From Haloferax volcanii DS2 (GTDB lineage Archaea; Halobacteriota; Halobacteria; Halobacteriales; Haloferacaceae), in NCBI RefSeq assembly GCF_000025685.1, contig NC_013967.1, positions 1,140,001 to 1,172,000 of the forward strand: a stretch of DNA of 32,000 nt, written 5' to 3'. A program made the position numbers and the translations under genes. Within the stretch, counting starts at the first letter, position 1. Every line of letters begins with the position of its first letter. Shown in pieces: positions 1,984-11,433 of the stretch. The notes beneath the pieces are model-generated. The model had not been told where the DNA came from. It searched no databases and saw only the letters and a list, made by a program, of their open reading frames with translations.

Positions 1984-2136
1984 ATGTCCGCTGCTGTCTC
2001 GCCGATTGCGGTGGTCGTTCCGGGACTCGTCTTCGGCGGTGCCGGCTTCGCGTTTCTGGGGCCGTTCGGTGCCGGCTTCGGCGCGGTCGTCGGCATCGTG
2101 CTCGGGGTGCTCGTGGGACGAGGAGAGGAGTACTGA
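1984..2136 (+). CDS. Small Gly-rich membrane peptide (50 aa)
   Basis: Internal ATG of track ORF 1822..2136. MSAAVSPIAVVVPGLVFGGAGFAFLGPFGAGFGAVVGIVLGVLVGRGEEY has glycine-zipper-like hydrophobic helices, and a TATA box sits at the correct distance. Confidence 0.45.
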   Translation: MSAAVSPIAVVVPGLVFGGAGFAFLGPFGAGFGAVVGIVLGVLVGRGEEY

Positions 2137-2178
2137 GCGCGACGCCCAGGGGGACCGCCGCGAACGAACGCGCCGCTC

Positions 2179-3426
2179 TCAGTCGCTCGGGGTCGCCTGC
2201 GGCCGTCGCGCCGATCCATCGACCCGGCCGAGGAGCCACCGGGTCAGCCCGAACGACAGCAGGCCGAGGACGGCGACGACGCCGAAGGTGACGCGCACGC
2301 CGGCGAGGTCGATGAGCGCCCCGAACGCCGGGGGCGCGACGGCCCCGCCGAGCGAGATGCCGACGGTGACGACGGCGAAGTTCTTCCCGAGATCGGCGCG
2401 CTCCGAGAGGCGGTCCGCGAGCGTCGACCGCGCGGGCCGGGAGACGCTGATGGTCCCGCTGAAGGGGAGAATCGACGCGACGAGCGCGAGCGGGATCGAC
2501 CCGGTCGCAAGGAGCGCCGCCAGTCCGGCGAGCGCGGCGTACCCGCCGAGGGCGACGGTGCCGGGACCGACCCGGTCGGTGAGCGCGCCGCCGACGAGAA
2601 TCGTCCCCGCGCCGACGACGAGCATCGCCGAGACGAGGAGGTTCGCCGTCCCCGGCGCGAGGCCGTAGCCGGCGGTGAGCAGTTGCGGCGAGTACGTCCG
2701 GATGCACCACGCGGCCGCCGAAGTGAGAAACGAGAGGAGCGCGAGCCCCATCAGCCCCGACGACGAGAGGAGTTCCGACGCGCCCCGCCGAATCCCCGCG
2801 AGCGTGGGGCGCGACGACGGGCGGTCTTCCGCCGCCGGCTTTCGGATTCGCTCGGGGAAGCCGCGGGCGACCGGGAGCGCGACGAGCGCGAACGCCGCGC
2901 CGAAGACGGCGATGCCCGCGACGGTCCAGCGCCAGCCGAACCCGAGCGCGCCGACGCCGGCGGCGATGGCGTACGAGACGGCGAAGCCGAGCGACCCGCC
3001 GAGGGCGTGCAGCGAGTACGCCCGCCCGCGGTTCGTCTCCGAGGAGGCGGTCGCCAAAAGCGGGTAGTGGGCGGGGTGGTGGCCCGCGATGCCGACGCCG
3101 AGAAGCGCCTGCGAGGCGAGGAGCCACGGGTACGAGGGCGCGAGCGCGGTGGCGACGATGCCAGCCGCGCCGAACCCGAGCGAGATGGCGAGGACGAGCG
3201 TCCGGCTTCGCGCGTCGGAGAGGTAGCCGAAGGGGAGTTGCAGGAGCGTCACGACGCCGCCTTGGACGCCGATGGCGAGGCCGACGGCGGCGATGCTCAC
3301 GCCGAAGTCGTCGGCGACGAGGCCGATGACGGGCGCGAGCGCGACCAGATAGGCGTGGTTGACGACGTGCGAGCCGGCGACGAGGCCGACCACGCGGCGC
3401 TCCTGTGTCTCCGTCACACCGGTCAA
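2179..3426 (-). CDS. MFS transporter (about 415 aa)
   Basis: About 12 predicted TM helices; N-terminus GSHVVNHAYLVALAPVIG is typical of a haloarchaeal MFS family. The start is non-ATG: TTG at 3426, with an alternative GTG at 3417. The exact start is uncertain. Confidence 0.85.
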   Translation of the reverse strand: MTGVTETQERRVVGLVAGSHVVNHAYLVALAPVIGLVADDFGVSIAAVGLAIGVQGGVVTLLQLPFGYLSDARSRTLVLAISLGFGAAGIVATALAPSYPWLLASQALLGVGIAGHHPAHYPLLATASSETNRGRAYSLHALGGSLGFAVSYAIAAGVGALGFGWRWTVAGIAVFGAAFALVALPVARGFPERIRKPAAEDRPSSRPTLAGIRRGASELLSSSGLMGLALLSFLTSAAAWCIRTYSPQLLTAGYGLAPGTANLLVSAMLVVGAGTILVGGALTDRVGPGTVALGGYAALAGLAALLATGSIPLALVASILPFSGTISVSRPARSTLADRLSERADLGKNFAVVTVGISLGGAVAPPAFGALIDLAGVRVTFGVVAVLGLLSFGLTRWLLGRVDGSARRPQATPSD

Positions 3427-3499: not shown

Positions 3500-4399
3500 T
3501 CAGCCGCCACCGCGGCCACCGCGCCGTTCTCCGCCGAACCGCGCGCCGAGCCAGAGGTCGGCGAACGTATCGAAGAACTCCGCGCCGGTGTCGACGAGTT
3601 CGCGCTCGATGCCGAGCGCCTGACACCGCTCGTCGACCGCCGCGAGGTGGCGCTGGAGGCGGTCTGTGTACTGCCGCGCCGCCGACCCGCCGAAGTAGGT
3701 CCGGCGCGTCGCCTCGGACTCGGGGTCCTCGAAGATGGCGTCGCCCGTCGCCTCGGGGTCGAGTTCGTCCGGGGTGAGCACCTGCGCGACGAGCACGTCG
3801 TTTCGCGCGAGCGCGGCGAGGCCGGAAGCCACGTCGTCGGGGTCGAAAAGCAGGTCACTCACGATGATCACGAGCGACCGCGAGTGGATGGTCTCGGCGT
3901 ACGTCGACAGCGCGGCCGTGATGTCGCCGTCGCCTCCGGGCGTCGTCTCGTTGAGCCGTTCGACCAGTCGGAGCACCTCGCCGCGGCTCGACGCGTCGGT
4001 GTCGATGCGGTCGGGCAAATCTCCGAGGAGCGAAAACCGGAAGTCGTTGTTCTCCTCGGCCGTCAGGTGACAGAAGCCGAGGCCGAGCTTCGCGCCGTAC
4101 TCGAACTTGTTCGCGTCGCCCTCGCCGAAGTCCATCGACGCCGAGGCGTCGAGGAGGACGTGGACCGTCAGGTTCCGCTCGGCCTCGAACCGCTTGATGA
4201 ACAGCTCCTCGGTCCGGGCGTACACCTTCCAGTCGATGAGCCGCGGGTCGTCGCCGGCGGCGTACCGGCGGTGGTCGCTGAACGTGAGCCCCTCGCCCAC
4301 GTCCGGCGACTCCTGTTCGCCCTGCCGCCGGGCGTTCGAGACGCGCTTCAGCGAGGTGTCGAAGCGGTCGAGTTCGTCGAGGAAGCCGGGGTCTATCAT
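3500..4399 (-). CDS. DUF58 family protein (vWA-like partner of MoxR), 299 aa
   Basis: GLTFSDHRRYAAGDDPRLIDWKVYARTEELFIKRFEAERNLTVHVLLDASASMDFG is the canonical DUF58 signature. The ATG at 4399 lies 7 nt after the MoxR stop. Confidence 0.9.
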   Translation of the reverse strand: MIDPGFLDELDRFDTSLKRVSNARRQGEQESPDVGEGLTFSDHRRYAAGDDPRLIDWKVYARTEELFIKRFEAERNLTVHVLLDASASMDFGEGDANKFEYGAKLGLGFCHLTAEENNDFRFSLLGDLPDRIDTDASSRGEVLRLVERLNETTPGGDGDITAALSTYAETIHSRSLVIIVSDLLFDPDDVASGLAALARNDVLVAQVLTPDELDPEATGDAIFEDPESEATRRTYFGGSAARQYTDRLQRHLAAVDERCQALGIERELVDTGAEFFDTFADLWLGARFGGERRGGRGGG

Positions 4400-4406
4400 C
4401 GCTCGG

Positions 4407-5423
4407 TCACTCGTTCAACAGCCGTTGAATCACGTCGTCGGGGTCGAGTCCCTCGCGCTCCGCCCGGAAGTCGAGGATGATGCGGTGTCTGATGACCGGC
4501 GGGGCCATCTCGACCACGTCCTCCCACGAGACGTGAGTGCGCCCGTGGACGAACGCCCGCGCCTTCGCGGCGAGCACGAGCGCCATGCTCGCGCGGGGGC
4601 TCGCGCCGAACTCGACCTGCTCGTCCTCGCGAGTGCTGCGGACCAGTTCGATAGTCCGGTTGCGGATGTCGTCGGAGATGGGCACCTGCCGGACGAGTTG
4701 CTGCGCGGCGAGCAGGTGCGTCCGCGGCAGGACGCGCTCGACCTCGGGCGACTCGCCGCCCTCGGCGTACTGCTTGACGATGGTCCGCTCCTCGTCGAAC
4801 TCGGGGTAGTCGACGAGAATCTTCATCAGGAAGCGGTCGGTCTGCGCCTCCGGCAGCGGGTAGGTGCCGCCCTGGTCGATTGGGTTCTGCGTGGCGAGGA
4901 CGAAAAACGGGTCCGGAAGCTCGTAGGTCTCGCCCGCGGCGGTCACCTGCTTTTCCTGCATGGCTTCGAGGAGCGCGGCCTGCGTCTTCGGCGTCGCGCG
5001 GTTTATCTCGTCGGCGAGGACGACGTTGGCGAAGATGGGGCCGCGCTCGAACACGAAGTCGCGGCCCTCCGGCGTCTCGCGGATGATCTCGGTGCCCGTG
5101 ATGTCCGAGGGCATCAGGTCGGGCGTGTTCTGCACGCGCGAGAACCCCAGGTCCGTCGCGTCCGAGAGGGCTCGCACGAGCGTCGTCTTCCCCAGTCCGG
5201 GGTTCGATTCGAGCAGCGCGTTGCCGTCGCAGAGGACGCAGACGAGGAGTCGCTCGACCACGTCGTGCTGGCCGATGATGCGCTTTCCGACCTCGTCTCT
5301 GACCGCGCCGACGCTCGCTTGGAGTTCCTCGATGCTGAGGTCGTCGTCCGTCGGGACCGCGGCGTCGCCGTCGACCGCGGTTCGCTGTCCGTCGTCTCCG
5401 AATCGGTCTGGGTTGTCACTCAT
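4407..5423 (-). CDS. MoxR-family AAA+ ATPase (338 aa)
   Basis: Walker A LLESNPGLGKTTLVRAL, Walker B VLADEINRATPKTQAALLEAMQE, and ATQNPIDQGGTYPLPEAQTDRF match the MoxR (AAA_3) pattern. Confidence 0.95.
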   Translation of the reverse strand: MSDNPDRFGDDGQRTAVDGDAAVPTDDDLSIEELQASVGAVRDEVGKRIIGQHDVVERLLVCVLCDGNALLESNPGLGKTTLVRALSDATDLGFSRVQNTPDLMPSDITGTEIIRETPEGRDFVFERGPIFANVVLADEINRATPKTQAALLEAMQEKQVTAAGETYELPDPFFVLATQNPIDQGGTYPLPEAQTDRFLMKILVDYPEFDEERTIVKQYAEGGESPEVERVLPRTHLLAAQQLVRQVPISDDIRNRTIELVRSTREDEQVEFGASPRASMALVLAAKARAFVHGRTHVSWEDVVEMAPPVIRHRIILDFRAEREGLDPDDVIQRLLNE

Positions 5424-6339
5424 CTTCGTTCTCTCGTATCTCTAAGGTGTAGTCGCGAATCAGGTCGGCCTCTTCGAGCGTGTCGTCGGCGAGATAGCCG
5501 GCGCGCTGGCTCTCGACGGCGCTGTCGCCGCCGTACCCGGTCGAGTCGTAGGCCGCTGCCGCCGACTCCGGTCCGTCGCCGTCGCCGCTGCCGCCGGTTC
5601 CGGCGACGGTGGCGTTCAACTGCTCCGACCCGGCGGCCACGTCCTCGGGGTCACCGAGGATGGAACTGCCGTTTTGAAGCCGCGTCTCGTCGTCGGACGC
5701 GTCGGGGAGGTCGCCCGACGGGGTGGTCTCGCCGGCGAGTCCCTCGAACTGGATGTCCGAGATGGCGACCTGGATGCTCCCCGCCGAGAGGAGCAACGCG
5801 ACGAGCAGCGCGCCGACGATGCGGCGGGTCGGCAGCAGTTCCACCGACGACGACTCCCGAAGGCGGGCCAGCACGTCGTCGTAGAGCGCGACCGACATGC
5901 GCGAGTCGCGGTTCGGGTTCCCGTCGTCGGCGACGAGGTCGCGGGCGGTCCGCAGCGCCTCGGCGACCGACGGGTTCACTTCCTCGAACTGCTCGACCGC
6001 CGGCACCCGCATCAGGATGAGGTACTCCGCGACGCCGACGAGGAGGCCCACCGCGAGGGCGAGCGGGACGCCGACGTGGACCGAGACGGCCGGGTCCACC
6101 CGCGGGAGGAAGCCGAGCGACACCGACGACCGGACGGGGAGTTCGACGACCCGGAACGCGACGTTCGCCAACAGCGTCGCCACCGCGGCGTCGACGACGC
6201 TGGAAACGACGGCGGCCTTCGCGGCCTCCCGGCGAACCTCGCTCACGGCGTCGGCCATCTCCTCGCGGCGAGCGGCTCCCGCGTCGTCGGGCGAACCTCT
6301 CTCGTCTGCGGCGGCGTCGTCGGGGGTCGTTTCAGACAT
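5416..6339 (-). CDS. Uncharacterised 3-TM membrane protein with a long acidic C-terminal region (307 aa)
   Basis: The true start is the ATG at 6339 (MSETTPDDAAADERG...), inside track ORF 5416..6714, whose first 125 residues are Arg/Ser/Thr-rich junk. There are three hydrophobic helices. The start overlaps the upstream stop (ATGTCTGA) and the stop overlaps the MoxR start (ATGAGTGA). Confidence 0.75.
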   Translation of the reverse strand: MSETTPDDAAADERGSPDDAGAARREEMADAVSEVRREAAKAAVVSSVVDAAVATLLANVAFRVVELPVRSSVSLGFLPRVDPAVSVHVGVPLALAVGLLVGVAEYLILMRVPAVEQFEEVNPSVAEALRTARDLVADDGNPNRDSRMSVALYDDVLARLRESSSVELLPTRRIVGALLVALLLSAGSIQVAISDIQFEGLAGETTPSGDLPDASDDETRLQNGSSILGDPEDVAAGSEQLNATVAGTGGSGDGDGPESAAAAYDSTGYGGDSAVESQRAGYLADDTLEEADLIRDYTLEIRENEDE

Positions 6340-6955
6340 CGCTACACACCGCCGGTTGGTTGCCGTCTTGGTAGCCGGCACAGGCTTGCCGGAGTTCGGC
6401 CCGGAGTTCGTCGACCCGGTCTTCGAGGCGGGAGACCTCCGACTGGAGCGAATCAATCTGGTTCTCCAGTCGGTCGTTCGTCGCTTCGAGCTCCTCGTTA
6501 TCCGTTTCGAGGTCGTCAATCTGGTTTTCGAGGCGGTTGCGCTGTTCTTCGAGGTCGTCGAGCGTCGCCGTGAGTTCGCTGATTCGGCTCCGGGCGTCTT
6601 CGAGGTTGCTTTCGGTCTCTTGGAGTTCGTCCCGCGTCGACGACAGCTCGTTTTGCGTCGACGACAGCTGTGACTCCGTGTCTTCGAGGCTGTCGGAGAC
6701 CTGTGACACGTCACCTCGGGTGCGTTCGAGGCTGTCGTTCAGCTCCCGTAGCTCCGTCCGCGTCGCCGACAGGTTCTGTCGGCTTTGCGAAAGGTTCTCT
6801 TCGAGCGCCGCGTTTCGCTCGCGCAACTGCTCGTTCTGTTGGTCGAGCGAATCGACCGAGTACTGGTAGAACATCGTCGCGCCGACGGCACCGGCGGTGA
6901 GGAGGACGACGATGACGACGAGACCGAGGTTCAGGGACCGACCCAGGGCACTCAT
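6332..6955 (-). CDS. N-terminally membrane-anchored coiled-coil protein (207 aa)
   Basis: The TM helix LNLGLVVIVVLLTAGAVGATMF is followed by about 150 aa of heptad-like Glu/Leu/Ser/Asn repeats, then C-terminal CAGYQDGNQPAVC. There is an ATGA overlap with the upstream vWA gene. Confidence 0.8.
   Translation of the reverse strand: MSALGRSLNLGLVVIVVLLTAGAVGATMFYQYSVDSLDQQNEQLRERNAALEENLSQSRQNLSATRTELRELNDSLERTRGDVSQVSDSLEDTESQLSSTQNELSSTRDELQETESNLEDARSRISELTATLDDLEEQRNRLENQIDDLETDNEELEATNDRLENQIDSLQSEVSRLEDRVDELRAELRQACAGYQDGNQPAVCSDV
6634..6669. repeat. Perfect 15 nt direct repeat with 21 nt period inside the coiled-coil gene
   Basis: GCGTCGACGACAGCT occurs at 6634..6648 and again at 6655..6669. 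The copies encode the duplicated heptads LSSTQNE / LSSTRDE. Confidence 0.7.
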
Positions 6956-9408
6956 ATCAGACCACCTTCACTTTGCGTTCGACCCCGATACACTTGAACA
7001 CGCCGGGCGAGTACCTCGATGAGATACAGGAGGAACGCGGCGGCGACGAACGCGACCGCCCAGTCGTCGCGCACGGGTTGGACGCCGGCGGCGTTGTCGC
7101 GGGCTGAGGCCGCGATTTCGGCCGCGTCGTTGGGGCCGTACATCGTCCCGCCGCTGTCGGAGACGGCGGCTTCGAGCGCGGCCGGCCGGCCGAACCCGGC
7201 GTGCTCGACGGGGTAGTTCACGGCGAAGGCGGTGTCGAGCACGTCCCGATAGCCCGTCTCGGTGGGGACGACCGTCGCCTCGTAGACGCCGGGGCTGACC
7301 GCCGAAAAGCGCAGTCCCTCGACGCCCCGCGGGCGCTCGCCGCCGCGGTAGACGACGGTCGTCGACTGGTCGACCCGGGTGTCCGACACCTCGGCGACGC
7401 CGGACGCCTTCCGCTCGGGGTCACCGATGACGTAGTTCGTGGACTTGGTGAGCAGGAGCGAGTCGGGACTTTGGAGCAGGCCGTCGAGCGTGCCGTCGCC
7501 CGCGTAAGTGGTGACGGTGGCGACGCGACCGAGCCCGTAGCGCCACGACGCGACCGCGGGAGTGCCGTCGTCGGCCGCGACGAGGAAGTTCGCGCCGCTC
7601 CTGACCGACACGTCGTTGACGCTGCCGGGGTTCGCGGTCAGCTCCACCCCGGCGGTGACGAAGTCGTTCTGGTCGACGACCGTGAGGCCGTCGCCGGCGT
7701 ACTGGCGGTTCGACCCGCCGAAGAGGATGCGGAGCCGGTCGGTCTCGTCGGCTCTGAGGTAGTTCCCGCCGGACGCCCGCGCGATGGCTCGGAGGGTCCG
7801 TTCGTTCGGGTTCGGCCCGGTCCCGATGGTGATGACGCTGACCCCGTCGCGACCGAGTTGGTCCGCGAGCGTCGCGGCGTCTTGGAACCGGTCGTGCCCG
7901 TCGCTGATGAGGATAATCGTCCCGCGCCTGTCGCCGAGCTGCTGAGCCGCGCCGTCGAGGCCGACGGCGATGTCGGTCGCGCCGCCGGACTCGAGGCGAC
8001 GGATGAGGTCGGCGGCCGACTCGCGGTTCGGCCCGAGCGGGCGGAGCGGCGCGACGTCGTAGGCGCGGTAGTTGAAGCCGACGATGCCGACCCGGTTCTC
8101 GTCGCCGAGTTGGTCGAGCGCGTCGAGCGCGACCGATTTCTGGACGCGCATCCCGCTTTCCGCGCTGCCGGAGACGTCGATGGCGAAGACGAGGTTCGTC
8201 TGCTGGGACGCGCCCTCGCCGGTCGTGACCGGCAGCATCGACGCGAGGCTCGACCCGTCGTAACCGCCGTTTTCGAACGCGTTGCGCCCGCCGACGGTCA
8301 GCAGGCCGCCGCCGTCGATGACGAACCGCTGGAGCGAGTCGGTGTTGCCCACGTCCTCGGCGCGGAGGTCCTGGAGGACGACGGCGTGGTACGACGAGAG
8401 GTCCGCGGGGACGGTCTCGGCGGTCTCCACGTCGTACAGCTGCGAGAGGTAGTCGCCGAACGGGTAGTCGCCGCGGGAGACGTACAGCACCCGCGGGGGC
8501 TCGACCACGCGGACCGTCTTGCGGAACACGTCGTTCGTCTGGAAGCGGTCGTCGCTCTCGATGCGAGCGGTGACGCGGTGGGTCCCGGTGGTCTCGAACG
8601 TCTGGGAGAACTCGACGCCGCCGGTGGTGTTGACCACCTCGCGGGCGACTTCCTCGCCGTCGACGTCCACGACGAGTTCGACGGTCGCGCCCTCGGCGCC
8701 CTCGGGAACGACCCCGTCGACCTGCGCGAGGAACGCGTTCTCGACGCCGACGCTGGTCTTCGACGGGCCGCTGACGGTGACGTACTGTTCGGTCTCGGTC
8801 GGTTCGACCCCGACCGCGCTCACGGTCGCGTTGAGGTCGCGGGCGAGCGTCGTCGCGGACGCGAGGCTCCGCCCCGAGGTGACCTGCCCGTCGGAGACGA
8901 GGACGACCGTCCCGTTCGGCCTGAGGTTTGCCGCGACGGCGTCACCGATGGGCGACGACCCGCCGCGGGCAACGGTCGAGGTGGTGACGGGGACGCCTTC
9001 GTCCTCGATGTCCGACGCGAGCTGCGACGCCACGTCCTCGGTGACGGCCATGCTGTCGGAGTCGTCGACGAGGAGCGTCACCTGCGGGTCGCCGTCGGTC
9101 ATCCGGGTCGCGACGGTGTACGGTCCCGCGGCCGCGACGACCAAGAGGACGACGACGAGAAGCCGGGACGCAAACAGGAGCCGCCGGGAGCGCCCGCCTG
9201 CGGTCCCGTCGGCCCCGCGGAAGATGAGCGCCCACGCGAGGAGCGCGGCCACCGGGAGCGCGACGAGGAACAGCGGGCGCTGGAGGCCGAGCGTCCGCCC
9301 GGCGGCCTCGACCGTCCACGCGAGGGGCGTCGTCGCGGCGGCGGGAGTCGTGGCGGCGACAGCGTCGAGCGCGGGCAGGACGGCCGACGCCGACCCGAGC
9401 GCCGCCAT
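6952..9408 (-). CDS. Large membrane-anchored protein with two vWA domains and GATase1-like (DUF1355-type) modules, 818 aa
   Basis: N-terminal TM pair and C-terminal TM helix (WAVAFVAAAFLLYLIEVL). MIDAS-like motifs LLVDDSDSM and FAIDVSGSA, with downstream VVLVSDG and IILISDG. The segment VLYVSRGDY...YHAVVLQD...FVIDGGGLLTVGG resembles a class I amidotransferase-like fold. Confidence 0.9.
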   Translation of the reverse strand: MAALGSASAVLPALDAVAATTPAAATTPLAWTVEAAGRTLGLQRPLFLVALPVAALLAWALIFRGADGTAGGRSRRLLFASRLLVVVLLVVAAAGPYTVATRMTDGDPQVTLLVDDSDSMAVTEDVASQLASDIEDEGVPVTTSTVARGGSSPIGDAVAANLRPNGTVVLVSDGQVTSGRSLASATTLARDLNATVSAVGVEPTETEQYVTVSGPSKTSVGVENAFLAQVDGVVPEGAEGATVELVVDVDGEEVAREVVNTTGGVEFSQTFETTGTHRVTARIESDDRFQTNDVFRKTVRVVEPPRVLYVSRGDYPFGDYLSQLYDVETAETVPADLSSYHAVVLQDLRAEDVGNTDSLQRFVIDGGGLLTVGGRNAFENGGYDGSSLASMLPVTTGEGASQQTNLVFAIDVSGSAESGMRVQKSVALDALDQLGDENRVGIVGFNYRAYDVAPLRPLGPNRESAADLIRRLESGGATDIAVGLDGAAQQLGDRRGTIILISDGHDRFQDAATLADQLGRDGVSVITIGTGPNPNERTLRAIARASGGNYLRADETDRLRILFGGSNRQYAGDGLTVVDQNDFVTAGVELTANPGSVNDVSVRSGANFLVAADDGTPAVASWRYGLGRVATVTTYAGDGTLDGLLQSPDSLLLTKSTNYVIGDPERKASGVAEVSDTRVDQSTTVVYRGGERPRGVEGLRFSAVSPGVYEATVVPTETGYRDVLDTAFAVNYPVEHAGFGRPAALEAAVSDSGGTMYGPNDAAEIAASARDNAAGVQPVRDDWAVAFVAAAFLLYLIEVLARRVQVYRGRTQSEGGLI

Positions 9409-11204
9409 CAGAGGTCACCCCGCCGGCGCAGGTAGGCCAACTCGACCATCGTCGCCGCGAGCGCGACCAGCGCGGCCCACTCGGTGAGCGGGTCCGGAAC
9501 CTCGCGCTCTTCGACCCGCGTCGGGTAGTCCGAGGGGGCCGACTCGCCGTCAAGCGGCGCGGCGGCCACGTCGGACTCGGCCTCGCTGAGGAGCGACGCC
9601 GAGAACCGCTCGTCGCCGACGCGGTAGAAGCCGGCGTCGTCGAGGCGGACCTCCGGGCCGGTCGCCTCGCCCGCGGGCGTCTCGACGGTCCGGTTCGCGC
9701 CCGCCGCGAGCGACCCGCCGGTCGCCCGGTTCAACTCGGAGAGCGTCGAGCGCCCGGCGAGGTAGAACACCGAGCGCTTCCAGAACACGGGGTACTGGTA
9801 GTTGTACTTGAACGCCGAGCTGTCCTCCATGAAGCCGTAGTAGAGGACGCGGCCGGCCCCGCGGCGCTCGACGGCGACGAGCGAGGTGCCGTCGGTCGTG
9901 TTCACGAGCGACTGGCCGGACCGGAGGTCACCCGCGACGTACTCGGTCGGTGGCGGGAAGGTGATATCGCGGGTTATCGGATGGCTCTCGACGGTCCCGA
10001 TGGTCGGATTCGTCTCGACGCTTCCCTGCGAGACGAGCCGCAGGTCGCCGTAGCTCGGCGACTCCTCTTGGGCCTGAATCGCCACGCCGCCGCCGTCGGC
10101 GACGATTTCGCGGCCGGCCTCGACGTTGCCCGCGAGCAGCCGACCGGGGTTGACGTTGCTGTAAATAACCACGTCGTAGTTCGTCGAGACGGCCGTCGGC
10201 GGGTTGTCCACGGTCAAAGACACCTCGGGGATGACCGACAGCGCGGCCGTCAGATATCGGTTCTCGTCGTTCGTGAGGACGAGCACGTCCACCGAGGCGT
10301 CCCCGGGGGCCGCGACGTACAGCGCGTCGTCGGTCGGGAAGGCGTCGCCCGGCGAGAGTTCGACGCGCCCGCCGCCCGCGGGGACCGGGAGCGTCGCGGT
10401 CGCCACGTCACCGGGGTCCATGCGGACCTCTCGGGTGGCTCCGGCGAGCGAGAGCGTCCGCGTCGCCGCCGAATCGCCGTAGTTCTTCACCGTCACGGTG
10501 ACGTTCGCGCCGGAGAAGCGCCGGTCGACGATGCCGACGTTGCCCGCGCCGCCGCCCGCGAACTGCTGGAGTTCGACCACGAGGCCGCGGGCGCGGGCTT
10601 CGCGGACCGCGTCGCTCCACGGCGAGTCGTCCGCGAAGTCGCTCAGAACGACGACGCGGGCGTCCTCGCCGGCGACGGAGGCGGCGGCGGTAATCGCGGA
10701 GCGCAGGTCACCCGGCGCGTCGCTCGCTTGCAGGCCGTCGAGGGCGGCGCGGGCGTCGGTCGCGCTCCCCCGGCGGAGCACTACGTCCGCGCTCGCGCCC
10801 GCCGCAACGACCGAGGTCGTGCCGGACACCTCGTCTCGCGCCGCGGCGAGGGCGCTGTCGAATCGCGTCCCGCCGCCGTCGCGGACGCCCATGCTCGCGC
10901 TCGTGTCCACGACGAGGACGGTCTCTTGGACCGTCTCCGACTCGGGAACCAGCACGTACGGCGTCGCCAGCGAGCCGACGAGCGCGACGAGCGCGACCAG
11001 TTGGATGAGGAGAAGCAGGCTCCGAAGCAGCCGGTCGAAGATGGGGTTCGAAGCGCTTCGCCCCGCCGCGTCCGCGAGGAACCGGAAGGTCGGGAGGGTG
11101 CGCCGGACCGGCTCCGGCCGCAACAGATAGAGGATGATGAGCGGGACTGCCCCCAGGAGGGCGACCAACCCGAGGGGGAACAAGAAGAACTCGGTGAGGG
11201 CCAT
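9408..11204 (-). CDS. BatA-N-type (aerotolerance-regulator N-terminal) vWA membrane protein, 598 aa
   Basis: Start chosen at the ATG at 11204 (MALTEFFLFPLGLVALLGAVPLIILYLLRPEP..., a BatA_N-like pattern that normally sits at the extreme N-terminus). MIDAS motif VLVVDTSASM; C-terminal TM helix WAALVALAATMVELAYL. The stop overlaps the next start (TGATG). The 128-residue upstream extension in the track is basic and non-halophilic. Confidence 0.85.
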   Translation of the reverse strand: MALTEFFLFPLGLVALLGAVPLIILYLLRPEPVRRTLPTFRFLADAAGRSASNPIFDRLLRSLLLLIQLVALVALVGSLATPYVLVPESETVQETVLVVDTSASMGVRDGGGTRFDSALAAARDEVSGTTSVVAAGASADVVLRRGSATDARAALDGLQASDAPGDLRSAITAAASVAGEDARVVVLSDFADDSPWSDAVREARARGLVVELQQFAGGGAGNVGIVDRRFSGANVTVTVKNYGDSAATRTLSLAGATREVRMDPGDVATATLPVPAGGGRVELSPGDAFPTDDALYVAAPGDASVDVLVLTNDENRYLTAALSVIPEVSLTVDNPPTAVSTNYDVVIYSNVNPGRLLAGNVEAGREIVADGGGVAIQAQEESPSYGDLRLVSQGSVETNPTIGTVESHPITRDITFPPPTEYVAGDLRSGQSLVNTTDGTSLVAVERRGAGRVLYYGFMEDSSAFKYNYQYPVFWKRSVFYLAGRSTLSELNRATGGSLAAGANRTVETPAGEATGPEVRLDDAGFYRVGDERFSASLLSEAESDVAAAPLDGESAPSDYPTRVEEREVPDPLTEWAALVALAATMVELAYLRRRGDL

Positions 11205-11394
11205 GCCCGACCCGTGGCGCGCCTCCGGTATGTCTGTTTCCCCATTTGTTGACACGTTCCGCAATACCGACCTATCGGAATGCGCGACTGTTCGGCGCAA
11301 CCGCCCGTGACCACCCCCCGGACAATTACTGTCAGGCATTATATTGTCAACTAAAACTACGTCATTGCATAACAATGCACTTGAATCATAACAC

Positions 11395-11408
11395 GATATA
11401 ATTTTATG
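11395..11408 (+). promoter_or_regulatory. TATA-like box for nhaC within an A/T-rich divergent promoter island
   Basis: GATATAATTTTATG ends about 25 nt before the ATG at 11434. The surrounding region 11330-11433 is conspicuously A/T-rich. Confidence 0.45.
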
Positions 11409-11433
11409 CTCTAAAGTTATTTGTTGAGCTACG

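Follow-up and report, generated by a model that had tools for sequence, protein, structure and literature searches.

Gene clusters that combine MoxR, DUF58 and BatA are widespread in bacteria and archaea and, to our knowledge, have been without a mechanism since their description in Bacteroides fragilis. In the Bat-type operons of Borrelia (bb0170-bb0176) and Leptospira (bat), the AAA_3 protein MoxR and DUF58 are encoded beside two membrane proteins with von Willebrand factor A (vWA) domains. Here we describe six genes of Haloferax volcanii DS2, HVO_1256-HVO_1261, which lie in a 32,000-nt stretch of contig NC_013967.1 (positions 1,140,001 to 1,172,000; 'the window', numbered from its first letter). 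They form a real and conserved archaeal counterpart of the Bat clusters of bacteria. With moderate confidence, we read them as encoding a single MoxR module of Bat type that spans the membrane: DUF58 would dock on the membrane subunits, MoxR would remodel them and the product would be an extracellular, cation-dependent platform for the envelope or adhesion.

In the CbbQ-CbbO, NorQ-NorD, RavA-ViaA and CoxD-CoxE pairs, the clients of the MoxR hexamer are cytoplasmic or membrane enzymes that are given metal centres or are remodelled. In contrast, the only conserved partners at the H. volcanii locus are membrane proteins with extracellular domains, and the module encodes no enzyme. [quoted passage not shown] As here, a MoxR of the MRP subfamily is found in a small operon with membrane proteins; the organism differs in being a bacterium with a Gram-negative envelope. 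The H. volcanii genes were already listed as a '6-gene operon' (Schulze et al., 2021, S1 Table). The literature searched gives no function for HVO_1256-1261 and does not mention the DUF models that Pfam holds for parts of the module.

The six genes, numbered g1 to g6 in the direction of transcription, are as follows.

9408..11204, minus strand: g1, HVO_1261, 598 aa (name from the published table of transcription start sites)
6952..9408, minus strand: g2, HVO_1260, 818 aa
6332..6955, minus strand: g3, HVO_1259, 207 aa
5416..6339, minus strand: g4, HVO_1258, 307 aa
4407..5423, minus strand: g5, HVO_1257, 338 aa
3500..4399, minus strand: g6, HVO_1256, 299 aa

All six open reading frames (ORFs; 3500-11204, minus strand) begin with ATG and end with TGA. 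From g1 to g6 the junctions are TGATG (-1 nt), ATGA (-4 nt), ATGTCTGA (-8 nt), ATGAGTGA (-8 nt) and a gap of +7 nt. A first-pass annotation, made from the sequence of the window, had described the same genes and junctions, and the ORF coordinates and overlaps agree with it exactly. The window is GC-rich overall, and a search for direct and inverted repeats between 3400 and 11300 returned only GC-rich matches at chance level.

Co-inheritance is a strong argument that the genes form a single functional system. In 20/20 haloarchaeal loci from four families the full set of six is found in the same order, which is far beyond chance, and the coiled-coil and three-helix membrane protein genes (g3 and g4) are syntenic with moxR at every one of them, as the first-pass annotation would predict. 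Junction overlaps are conserved too, at -1 nt for g1/g2 in 17/19 and at -4 nt (ATGA) for g2/g3 in 13/19. The flanking genes vary by genus. Of 149 sampled Halobacteria genomes, 42 have DUF7502, the family of g4, and 41 of these matches exceed the cut-off; the family spans 14 of 57 genera and was also detected in the controls H. volcanii and Methanosarcina acetivorans. DUF7408, a domain of g1, has an identical distribution: it is encoded ~4 kb from DUF7502, on the same strand, in those 41 genomes and is missing from the 108 others.

At the phylum level, 59 of 300 genomes carry DUF7502, and a large family of methanogens is among them. Outside the haloarchaea, 12 of 14 loci from Methanosarcinales and other Halobacteriota have the order DUF7502-MoxR-DUF58-g1-g2 (g4-g5-g6-g1-g2) and no coiled-coil gene. 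The two exceptions are a locus with none of the genes (L066) and one where MoxR and DUF58 alone are present, at a distance of ~7 kb (L069). Because the methanogen-type loci keep this order without the coiled coil, the core on gene content consists of five genes, to which haloarchaea have added g3. This agrees with the 'Hal' range of HVO_1259, 32 genomes, in the S1 Table of Schulze et al. (2021). The two extra membrane proteins had been taken to mark an archaeal variant of the Bat module; DUF7502 fits that description, being pan-archaeal, whereas the coiled coil is confined to haloarchaea.

Protein families were assigned with Pfam, using cut-offs of 25.9 bits for BatA_N (PF07584), 27 for VWA_2, 27 for AAA_3, 23.4 for DUF58 and 27 for DUF7502. 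g1 matches BatA_N (39.8 bits), VWA_2 (34.9), DUF7407 (124), DUF7408 (253) and DUF7406 (77). The BatA_N and vWA calls made earlier thus pass their thresholds, and both models match 33/33 g1 orthologues. TIGR02226 scores 22.9 on g1, marginally under its cut-off of 23.05; NCBIfam otherwise returned nothing specific for the six proteins. The order along g1 is a BatA_N hairpin of two transmembrane (TM) helices, a MIDAS vWA, a beta-sandwich (DUF7407), a putative GATase1/GldG-like domain (DUF7408), DUF7406, a C-terminal TM helix and a predicted cytoplasmic tail. The MIDAS residues D100-x-S102-x-S104 ... D189 are kept across the 33 orthologues, and the C-terminus R595-G596-[DE]597-[LI]598-COOH is kept in 31-33 of the 33 sequences. 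The C-terminal TM helix is weak in the H. volcanii protein (Kyte-Doolittle hydropathy <1.4 in a 19-residue window) and was detected in 29/33 orthologues.

g2 matches Pfam VWA at 74.9 bits (residues 405-557), and its BatA_N score of 18.6 bits is sub-threshold. An hhalign comparison of the g1 family (33 orthologues) with the g2 family (31) gave a probability of 99.7% and an E-value of 5e-27 over nearly the full length; by this alignment, g1 and g2 are paralogues. The same alignment places the canonical vWA of g2 inside its DUF7408-like (putatively GATase1-like) domain, which it splits in two. The order along g2 is an N-terminal TM pair, a small vWA, a CARDB-like beta-sandwich, the split, putatively GATase1-like domain with the inserted vWA, a C-terminal TM helix and a basic tail. 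Both vWA/MIDAS domains proposed for g2 are recovered, the inserted one by Pfam and the N-terminal one by alignment to the g1 vWA. The latter keeps D115-x-[ST]117-x-S119, [ST]152 and D173. In the inserted vWA the MIDAS residues D411, S413, S415, T478 and D503 are invariant in 31/31 orthologues. Across g1 and g2 there are thus three conserved MIDAS-type motifs, and all five residues are invariant only in the inserted vWA of g2. Conservation of the MIDAS residues across these 31-33 orthologues extends to non-halophilic methanogens.

An AlphaFold2 model of g2 (predicted local distance difference test score, pLDDT, 83.9) was searched with Foldseek. It matched Bacteroides BatB (3ibs, E-value 2e-10, TM-score 0.65) and a B. 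fragilis 'aerotolerance-related membrane protein' (4jdu, TM-score 0.67), as well as many MIDAS vWA domains and a CARDB beta-sandwich (3idu). For the putative GATase1-like domain, the secondary structure of the model is beta-alpha-beta. At the family level, GATase1_like (PF07090) matches 13/31 g2 orthologues, with a best E-value of 2.5e-9. Members of the g1 family match ABC_transp_aux (GldG-like; 7/33), DUF4350 (5/33), Glyco_hydro_42M (2/33) and ThuA, and IFT52_GIFT was also matched among the g1/g2 orthologues. The first-pass annotation had placed GATase1-like modules in g2; the matches among orthologues lend this support at the family level, but H. volcanii g1 and g2 themselves do not reach these models, and a PF07090 search of the H. 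volcanii genome found nothing.

Topology was predicted from a hydropathy scan and from counts of lysine and arginine (K/R) under the positive-inside rule, using 33 g1, 31 g2 and 30 g4 homologues that included non-halophilic methanogens. The short N-terminus of g1 and g2 lacks K/R. The TM1-TM2 loop carries 4-12 K/R in g1 and 2-6 in g2, acidic residues follow directly after TM2, and a basic tail lies past the last TM helix. This consistent distribution predicts that the N-terminus is outside, the loop inside, the ectodomain outside and the C-terminus inside. For g4, the N-terminus and the TM2-TM3 loop are predicted inside and the acidic tail outside. The scan found no TM segment in MoxR (g5) or DUF58 (g6), and g6 also lacks a signal peptide, so g6 is predicted to be cytoplasmic. 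Extracytoplasmic vWA domains served by a cytoplasmic MoxR and DUF58, the arrangement suggested earlier, are therefore what K/R counts and the absence of TM segments from g5 and g6 predict. In a BatA-type protein of Borrelia, BB0173, with TM helices at 7-25, 57-77 and 310-328, the vWA domain was found by experiment to be periplasmic (PMC5700661).

The remaining four assignments (coiled coil, three-TM protein, MoxR and DUF58) stand, with the qualification that g3 has only generic coiled-coil matches in Pfam and NCBIfam. g3 consists of an N-terminal TM anchor and a coiled coil of ~170 aa. Published glycoproteomics (PMC8241124) identified HVO_1259 by experiment as an AglB-dependent N-glycoprotein that carries two sites, which places the coiled coil outside the cell. 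An N-glycosylation sequon at residue 73 recurs in 11/21 orthologues. At the coiled-coil tip, a C-terminal pair of cysteines (C-x5 to x14-C) is kept in 15/21 orthologues and absent in five.

g4 matches DUF7502 over its full length (311.2 bits, model positions 1-281). It has three TM helices, a helical loop with the motif L-R-T-A-x-D in 30/30 orthologues and an acidic disordered tail with an invariant G229 followed by D/E (G229-[DE] kept in 28/30) and a conserved terminal helix (Y297). The AlphaFold2 model (pLDDT 70.7) has the same three long TM helices, helical loop, disordered acidic tail and terminal helix; Foldseek found no significant fold match for it in the PDB (best E-value 1.1). DUF4175 matches the family weakly (E-value 0.21, 2/30 members) and is a lead only. 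Among 1.84 billion proteins, the DUF7502 family has 640 cluster representatives at 50% identity (E-value <= 0.001). Named source genera include Haloferax, Salinirarus, Halogranum and Methanohalobium, and no functional name was among the names returned, all of which were 'hypothetical' or 'DUF7502 family'. Two single-ORF fusions join a g3-like TM coiled coil to g4 (P0079, 547 aa; P0113, 529 aa). P0113 is frame-shifted through TM1 and P0079 is in frame; either, if real, would invert the predicted topology of g4, and neither was used as evidence.

g5 matches AAA_3 (202 bits) and AAA_lid_2 (82 bits). Across 30 orthologues it retains the Walker A residues G76, K79 and T80, the Walker B pair D138-E139 and the sensor N180. 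By these residues, g5 is a catalytically intact cytoplasmic AAA+ ATPase of the MoxR type. g6 lies 7 nt downstream of moxR and matches DUF58 at 134.9 bits; it is vWA-like and keeps D84-x-S-x-S88 ... S181-D182. In three haloarchaeal genomes the MoxR orthologue is an ORF of 908-925 aa (L041:6258-9008, minus strand; L048:9893-12619, plus strand; L050:6287-9064, minus strand). These ORFs contain an intein of ~590 aa with a LAGLIDADG homing endonuclease (Intein_splicing, E-value 6.9e-17; LAGLIDADG_3, E-value 5.2e-14), inserted after the residue equivalent to ~187 of H. volcanii g5, just past the sensor-1 QNP motif.

Compared with the bacterial operons, the H. volcanii locus has MoxR, DUF58, BatA and a BatB-like protein. 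BB0173 has the TM-TM-vWA-TM plan of g1, and the modelled vWA of g2 superposes on 3ibs and 4jdu. Anchoring of the vWA proteins to the membrane at both ends had been put forward as distinctive, but it is also typical of bacterial BatA, as BB0173 shows. The differences lie elsewhere. g1 and g2 are two to three times longer than their Bat counterparts: a CARDB-like beta-sandwich, a putative GATase1/GldG-like domain and DUF7406 have been added, and a further vWA is inserted in g2. Two subunits are extra, DUF7502 throughout the archaea of the Halobacteriota and the glycosylated coiled coil in haloarchaea only. Haloarchaea also invert the gene order, so that the vWA genes come first. Neither a TPR protein (BatC/BatE) nor BatD is among the Pfam and NCBIfam matches of the six proteins or the flanking genes, in keeping with the earlier remark that the TPR-type components are missing.

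A second group of archaeal systems must also be compared. Clusters of DUF4350, MoxR and vWA genes were predicted to encode a 'secretion or membrane remodeling complex' (Makarova et al., 2015; PMC5898192). These arCOG01314 systems likewise combine an archaeal MoxR (COG0714) and vWA proteins with a membrane-anchored extracellular flavodoxin/GldG-like domain and small proteins of 2-3 TM helices, and some g1/g2 orthologues match DUF4350 and ABC_transp_aux weakly. They differ in having no BatA_N and no vWA in the same chain. None of the six window proteins matches DUF4350 in Pfam; a true DUF4350 protein (132 bits) lies beside a different MoxR gene of H. volcanii, at ~2.039 Mb. Filing the module under arCOG01314 was rejected, as an hhalign comparison between that DUF4350 protein and the g1 family gave no significant match (probability 0.8%). 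Of the four AAA_3 MoxR loci in H. volcanii, the one described here is alone in having BatA_N proteins. The other three, on the same contig at ~574963-575352, 2038599-2038988 and 1790651-1791040 (L070, L071 and L072), have different partners: DUF4129/DUF7269/DUF11+DUF58/DUF7519; DUF4350 with a 502-aa DUF58 protein (arCOG01314 type); and a transglutaminase-DUF4129 protein.

Expression was examined in four RNA-seq runs from two studies, with zooms at 20-40 nt resolution in X22, X23 and X24. Strand was calibrated on the plus-strand gene HVO_1254 (published transcription start site, TSS, at window 1984); minus-strand RNA corresponds to 'first mate on +'. Mean sense depths are as follows.

X24: g1-g2 18; g3-g6 60; ratio 3.3
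X22: g1-g2 7.8; g3-g6 46; ratio 5.9
X23: g1-g2 2.5; g3-g6 17; ratio 6.8
X21: g1-g2 1.2; g3-g6 8.6; ratio 7.3

The operon has at least two expression levels. In X22, X23 and X24, depth steps up at the ATG of g3, from 0-11 above 6957 to 36-75 by 6830. The six genes had been called one stoichiometrically coupled unit; with 3.3- to 7.3-fold more RNA on g3-g6 and a 5' boundary at the g3 ATG, the data do not support this. The step lies next to one candidate element.

6956..6995, minus strand: candidate internal promoter at the 3' end of g2, with a TATA-like TGTATC at 6987-6992, ~27 nt upstream of 6962; either a promoter or a processing site

In X24, sense RNA at ~10x spans the junction of g2 and g3, so some transcripts read through from g1 as well. 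For g1 itself, the sense RNA has its 5' edge at ~11190-11206, near the ATG, and the transcript would therefore be leaderless or have a very short leader. A single TSS upstream of 11204 had been expected. Published differential RNA-seq (Babski et al.) instead has internal TSSs in g3 (1,146,573, window 6573) and g4 (1,145,634, window 5634), besides antisense TSSs. The Babski et al. table lists none at the start of g1 or g3 and none upstream of g1, and the RNA-seq edges are candidate 5' ends.

Taken together, the reading we favour would work as follows. g1 and g2 are three-pass membrane proteins with large ectodomains, which are predicted to lie outside the cell and are tethered by TM helices at both ends; each ectodomain runs from a MIDAS-vWA through a CARDB-like beta-sandwich to a putative GATase1/GldG-like alpha/beta domain. 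The MIDAS of DUF58 (g6) would dock on cytoplasmic segments of the membrane subunits, by analogy with CbbQ-CbbO, NorQ-NorD and RavA-ViaA. As candidate docking sites we name the proline-rich loop of BatA_N, the tail of g1 (R-G-[DE]-L-COOH) and the DUF7502 LRTAxD loop; on the outer side, the G229-[DE] motif in the tail of DUF7502 is a further candidate contact. MoxR would spend ATP to assemble or remodel the complex, and remodelling would set the state of an extracellular binding platform that depends on divalent cations. The platform would serve cell-envelope maintenance or adhesion, not oxygen tolerance as such. Expression would come from two nested units, a weak promoter at g1 and a stronger 5' end at g3 for g3-g6, plus the MFS gene downstream in Haloferax. 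Most likely, then, the module yields a surface for binding or scaffolding that depends on metal ions and serves envelope maintenance or adhesion.

MoxR and DUF58 might instead act only in biogenesis, working once, from the cytoplasm, to hold and pass on the very large loops of g1 and g2 (membrane insertion, export and metal loading) and leaving passive adhesins or scaffolds at the surface. MoxR proteins are generally described as maturation chaperones of dedicated complexes (PMC3893208), g1 and g2 have no signal peptides although 500-700 aa between two TM helices must be exported, and the g3-g6 ATPase block is transcribed apart from g1-g2. However, RNA is more abundant for the ATPase genes than for the clients they would serve, and a catalytic assembly factor would not usually show this. 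As a membrane protein with a predicted extracellular tail, DUF7502 is also strictly coupled to the ATPase in all lineages, which suggests a permanent membrane complex. We regard the chaperone as a possible but doubtful explanation. A secretion or surface-layer assembly platform, in which GldG/DUF4350-like ectodomains form an extracellular ring or platform to export or arrange envelope proteins, would account for the orthologue matches to ABC_transp_aux, DUF4350, Glyco_hydro_42M, ThuA and IFT52_GIFT, and is in line with the prediction of Makarova et al. (2015). We consider it unlikely: no cargo, ABC transporter, secretin-like or surface-layer gene is conserved beside the module in the 20 loci, H. 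volcanii g1 and g2 match neither DUF4350 nor GATase1_like, and the genome has its separate DUF4350-MoxR locus.

Three things speak against the two remaining alternatives: how the module is distributed, a deletion result in Leptospira biflexa and the co-occurrence in 41/41 genomes. The name of the family, its BatA_N domain and the fold matches to BatB and the 'aerotolerance-related membrane protein' recall the role in aerotolerance or oxidative stress first proposed for the B. fragilis Bat operon. Yet the core is common to aerobic haloarchaea and Methanosarcinales-type genomes, only 41/149 Halobacteria carry it although all are aerobes, no redox domains or cysteines were found in g1, g2 or g4, and deletion of all bat genes of L. 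biflexa gave no phenotype (PMC3557215). Such a role is very improbable. We give as little credence to g1-g2 (surface vWA) and g3-g6 (MoxR block) being independent units that are merely adjacent. The separate 5' end at g3, the differing RNA levels and the different block order in haloarchaea and methanogens would suit two units, but co-occurrence is perfect (41/41 versus 0/108) and adjacency is kept across two gene orders and several families. Sense RNA is also continuous over the g2/g3 junction in X24, and the g2 stop overlaps the g3 start (ATGA) in 13/19 genomes.

Several points weigh against the membrane-spanning module that we favour. The coupling of MoxR and DUF58 to the ectodomains through the membrane is one that we infer, and the putative docking motifs are conserved sequence features only. 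For five of the six proteins, the literature searched reports neither a phenotype nor any data on interactions or localisation. No twin-arginine or other signal peptide was found, and export of loops of 500-700 aa has to be assumed. The GATase1-like models score below threshold on H. volcanii g1 and g2 themselves, so that call rests on orthologues. RNA levels of g1-g2 and g3-g6 differ 3- to 7-fold, which bears on the stoichiometry of any complex. Finally, the L. biflexa deletion suggests that Bat-type modules can be dispensable in the laboratory. The 'chaperone-plus-adhesion scaffold' of the first-pass annotation is likewise something that one may infer from the genes.

A bolder form of the membrane-spanning module is an 'inside-out' surface switch with a logic like that of integrin activation. 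Through the DUF58 MIDAS, MoxR would grip the g1 tail R-G-[DE]-L-COOH and the BatA_N and LRTAxD loops, move the two TM anchors of each ectodomain and toggle the three extracellular MIDAS sites between an open state that binds ligand and a self-occupied one, the latter filled by the conserved G-[DE]-P of the acidic DUF7502 tail. We hold this to be improbable and offer it as speculation; if true, ATP would control surface adhesion or envelope contacts across a single membrane.

Interest in the locus rests mainly on experimental tractability. H. volcanii is genetically tractable and its envelope is one membrane plus a surface layer, which eases tests of topology, of partners and of a link between a cytoplasmic ATPase and extracellular MIDAS sites. 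The analysis supplies handles for such work: gene names, invariant MIDAS residues, candidate docking motifs, the co-inherited DUF7502, a five-gene core shared with methanogens and expression at two levels. Should the function prove ordinary, as in envelope housekeeping, four DUF families would still be annotated.

Two features border the six genes.

2179..3426, minus strand: HVO_1255, major facilitator superfamily (MFS) transporter (MFS_1, E-value 4e-43), 73 nt downstream of g6
11205..11433: AT-rich intergenic region separating the divergent genes g1 and HVO_1262 (NhaC-type antiporter)

HVO_1262 (485 aa) is at 1,151,434, window 11434, in the published H. volcanii TSS table, which also assigns TSSs at window 9969, 6573 and 5634 to HVO_1261, HVO_1259 and HVO_1258; the gene names used here follow from these entries. 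MFS and NhaC neighbours occur only in Haloferax and a few relatives, and the MFS gene is syntenic in only 4/20 loci (L031, L037, L045 and L046). Sense depth runs unbroken from g6 into HVO_1255 (RNA depth 33-44), and the suggestion that the MFS gene is co-transcribed appears correct for H. volcanii.

Reads of five RNA runs (four raw, one contigs) join 4388, at the g5/g6 junction, to 6323, at the g3/g4 junction, on opposite strands with a 20-nt side; there is no inverted repeat there, and the join is probably a library artefact. Antisense RNA was seen at several places. Plus-strand RNA that starts at HVO_1254 (50 aa) covers window 1984-3200; its depth stays high where it lies opposite the 3' part of HVO_1255. 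Runs X22 and X24 have plus-strand RNA over the 3' part of g2 (window 7040-7260), and published antisense TSSs lie opposite g3 (1,146,525, window 6525) and g1 (1,149,969, window 9969).

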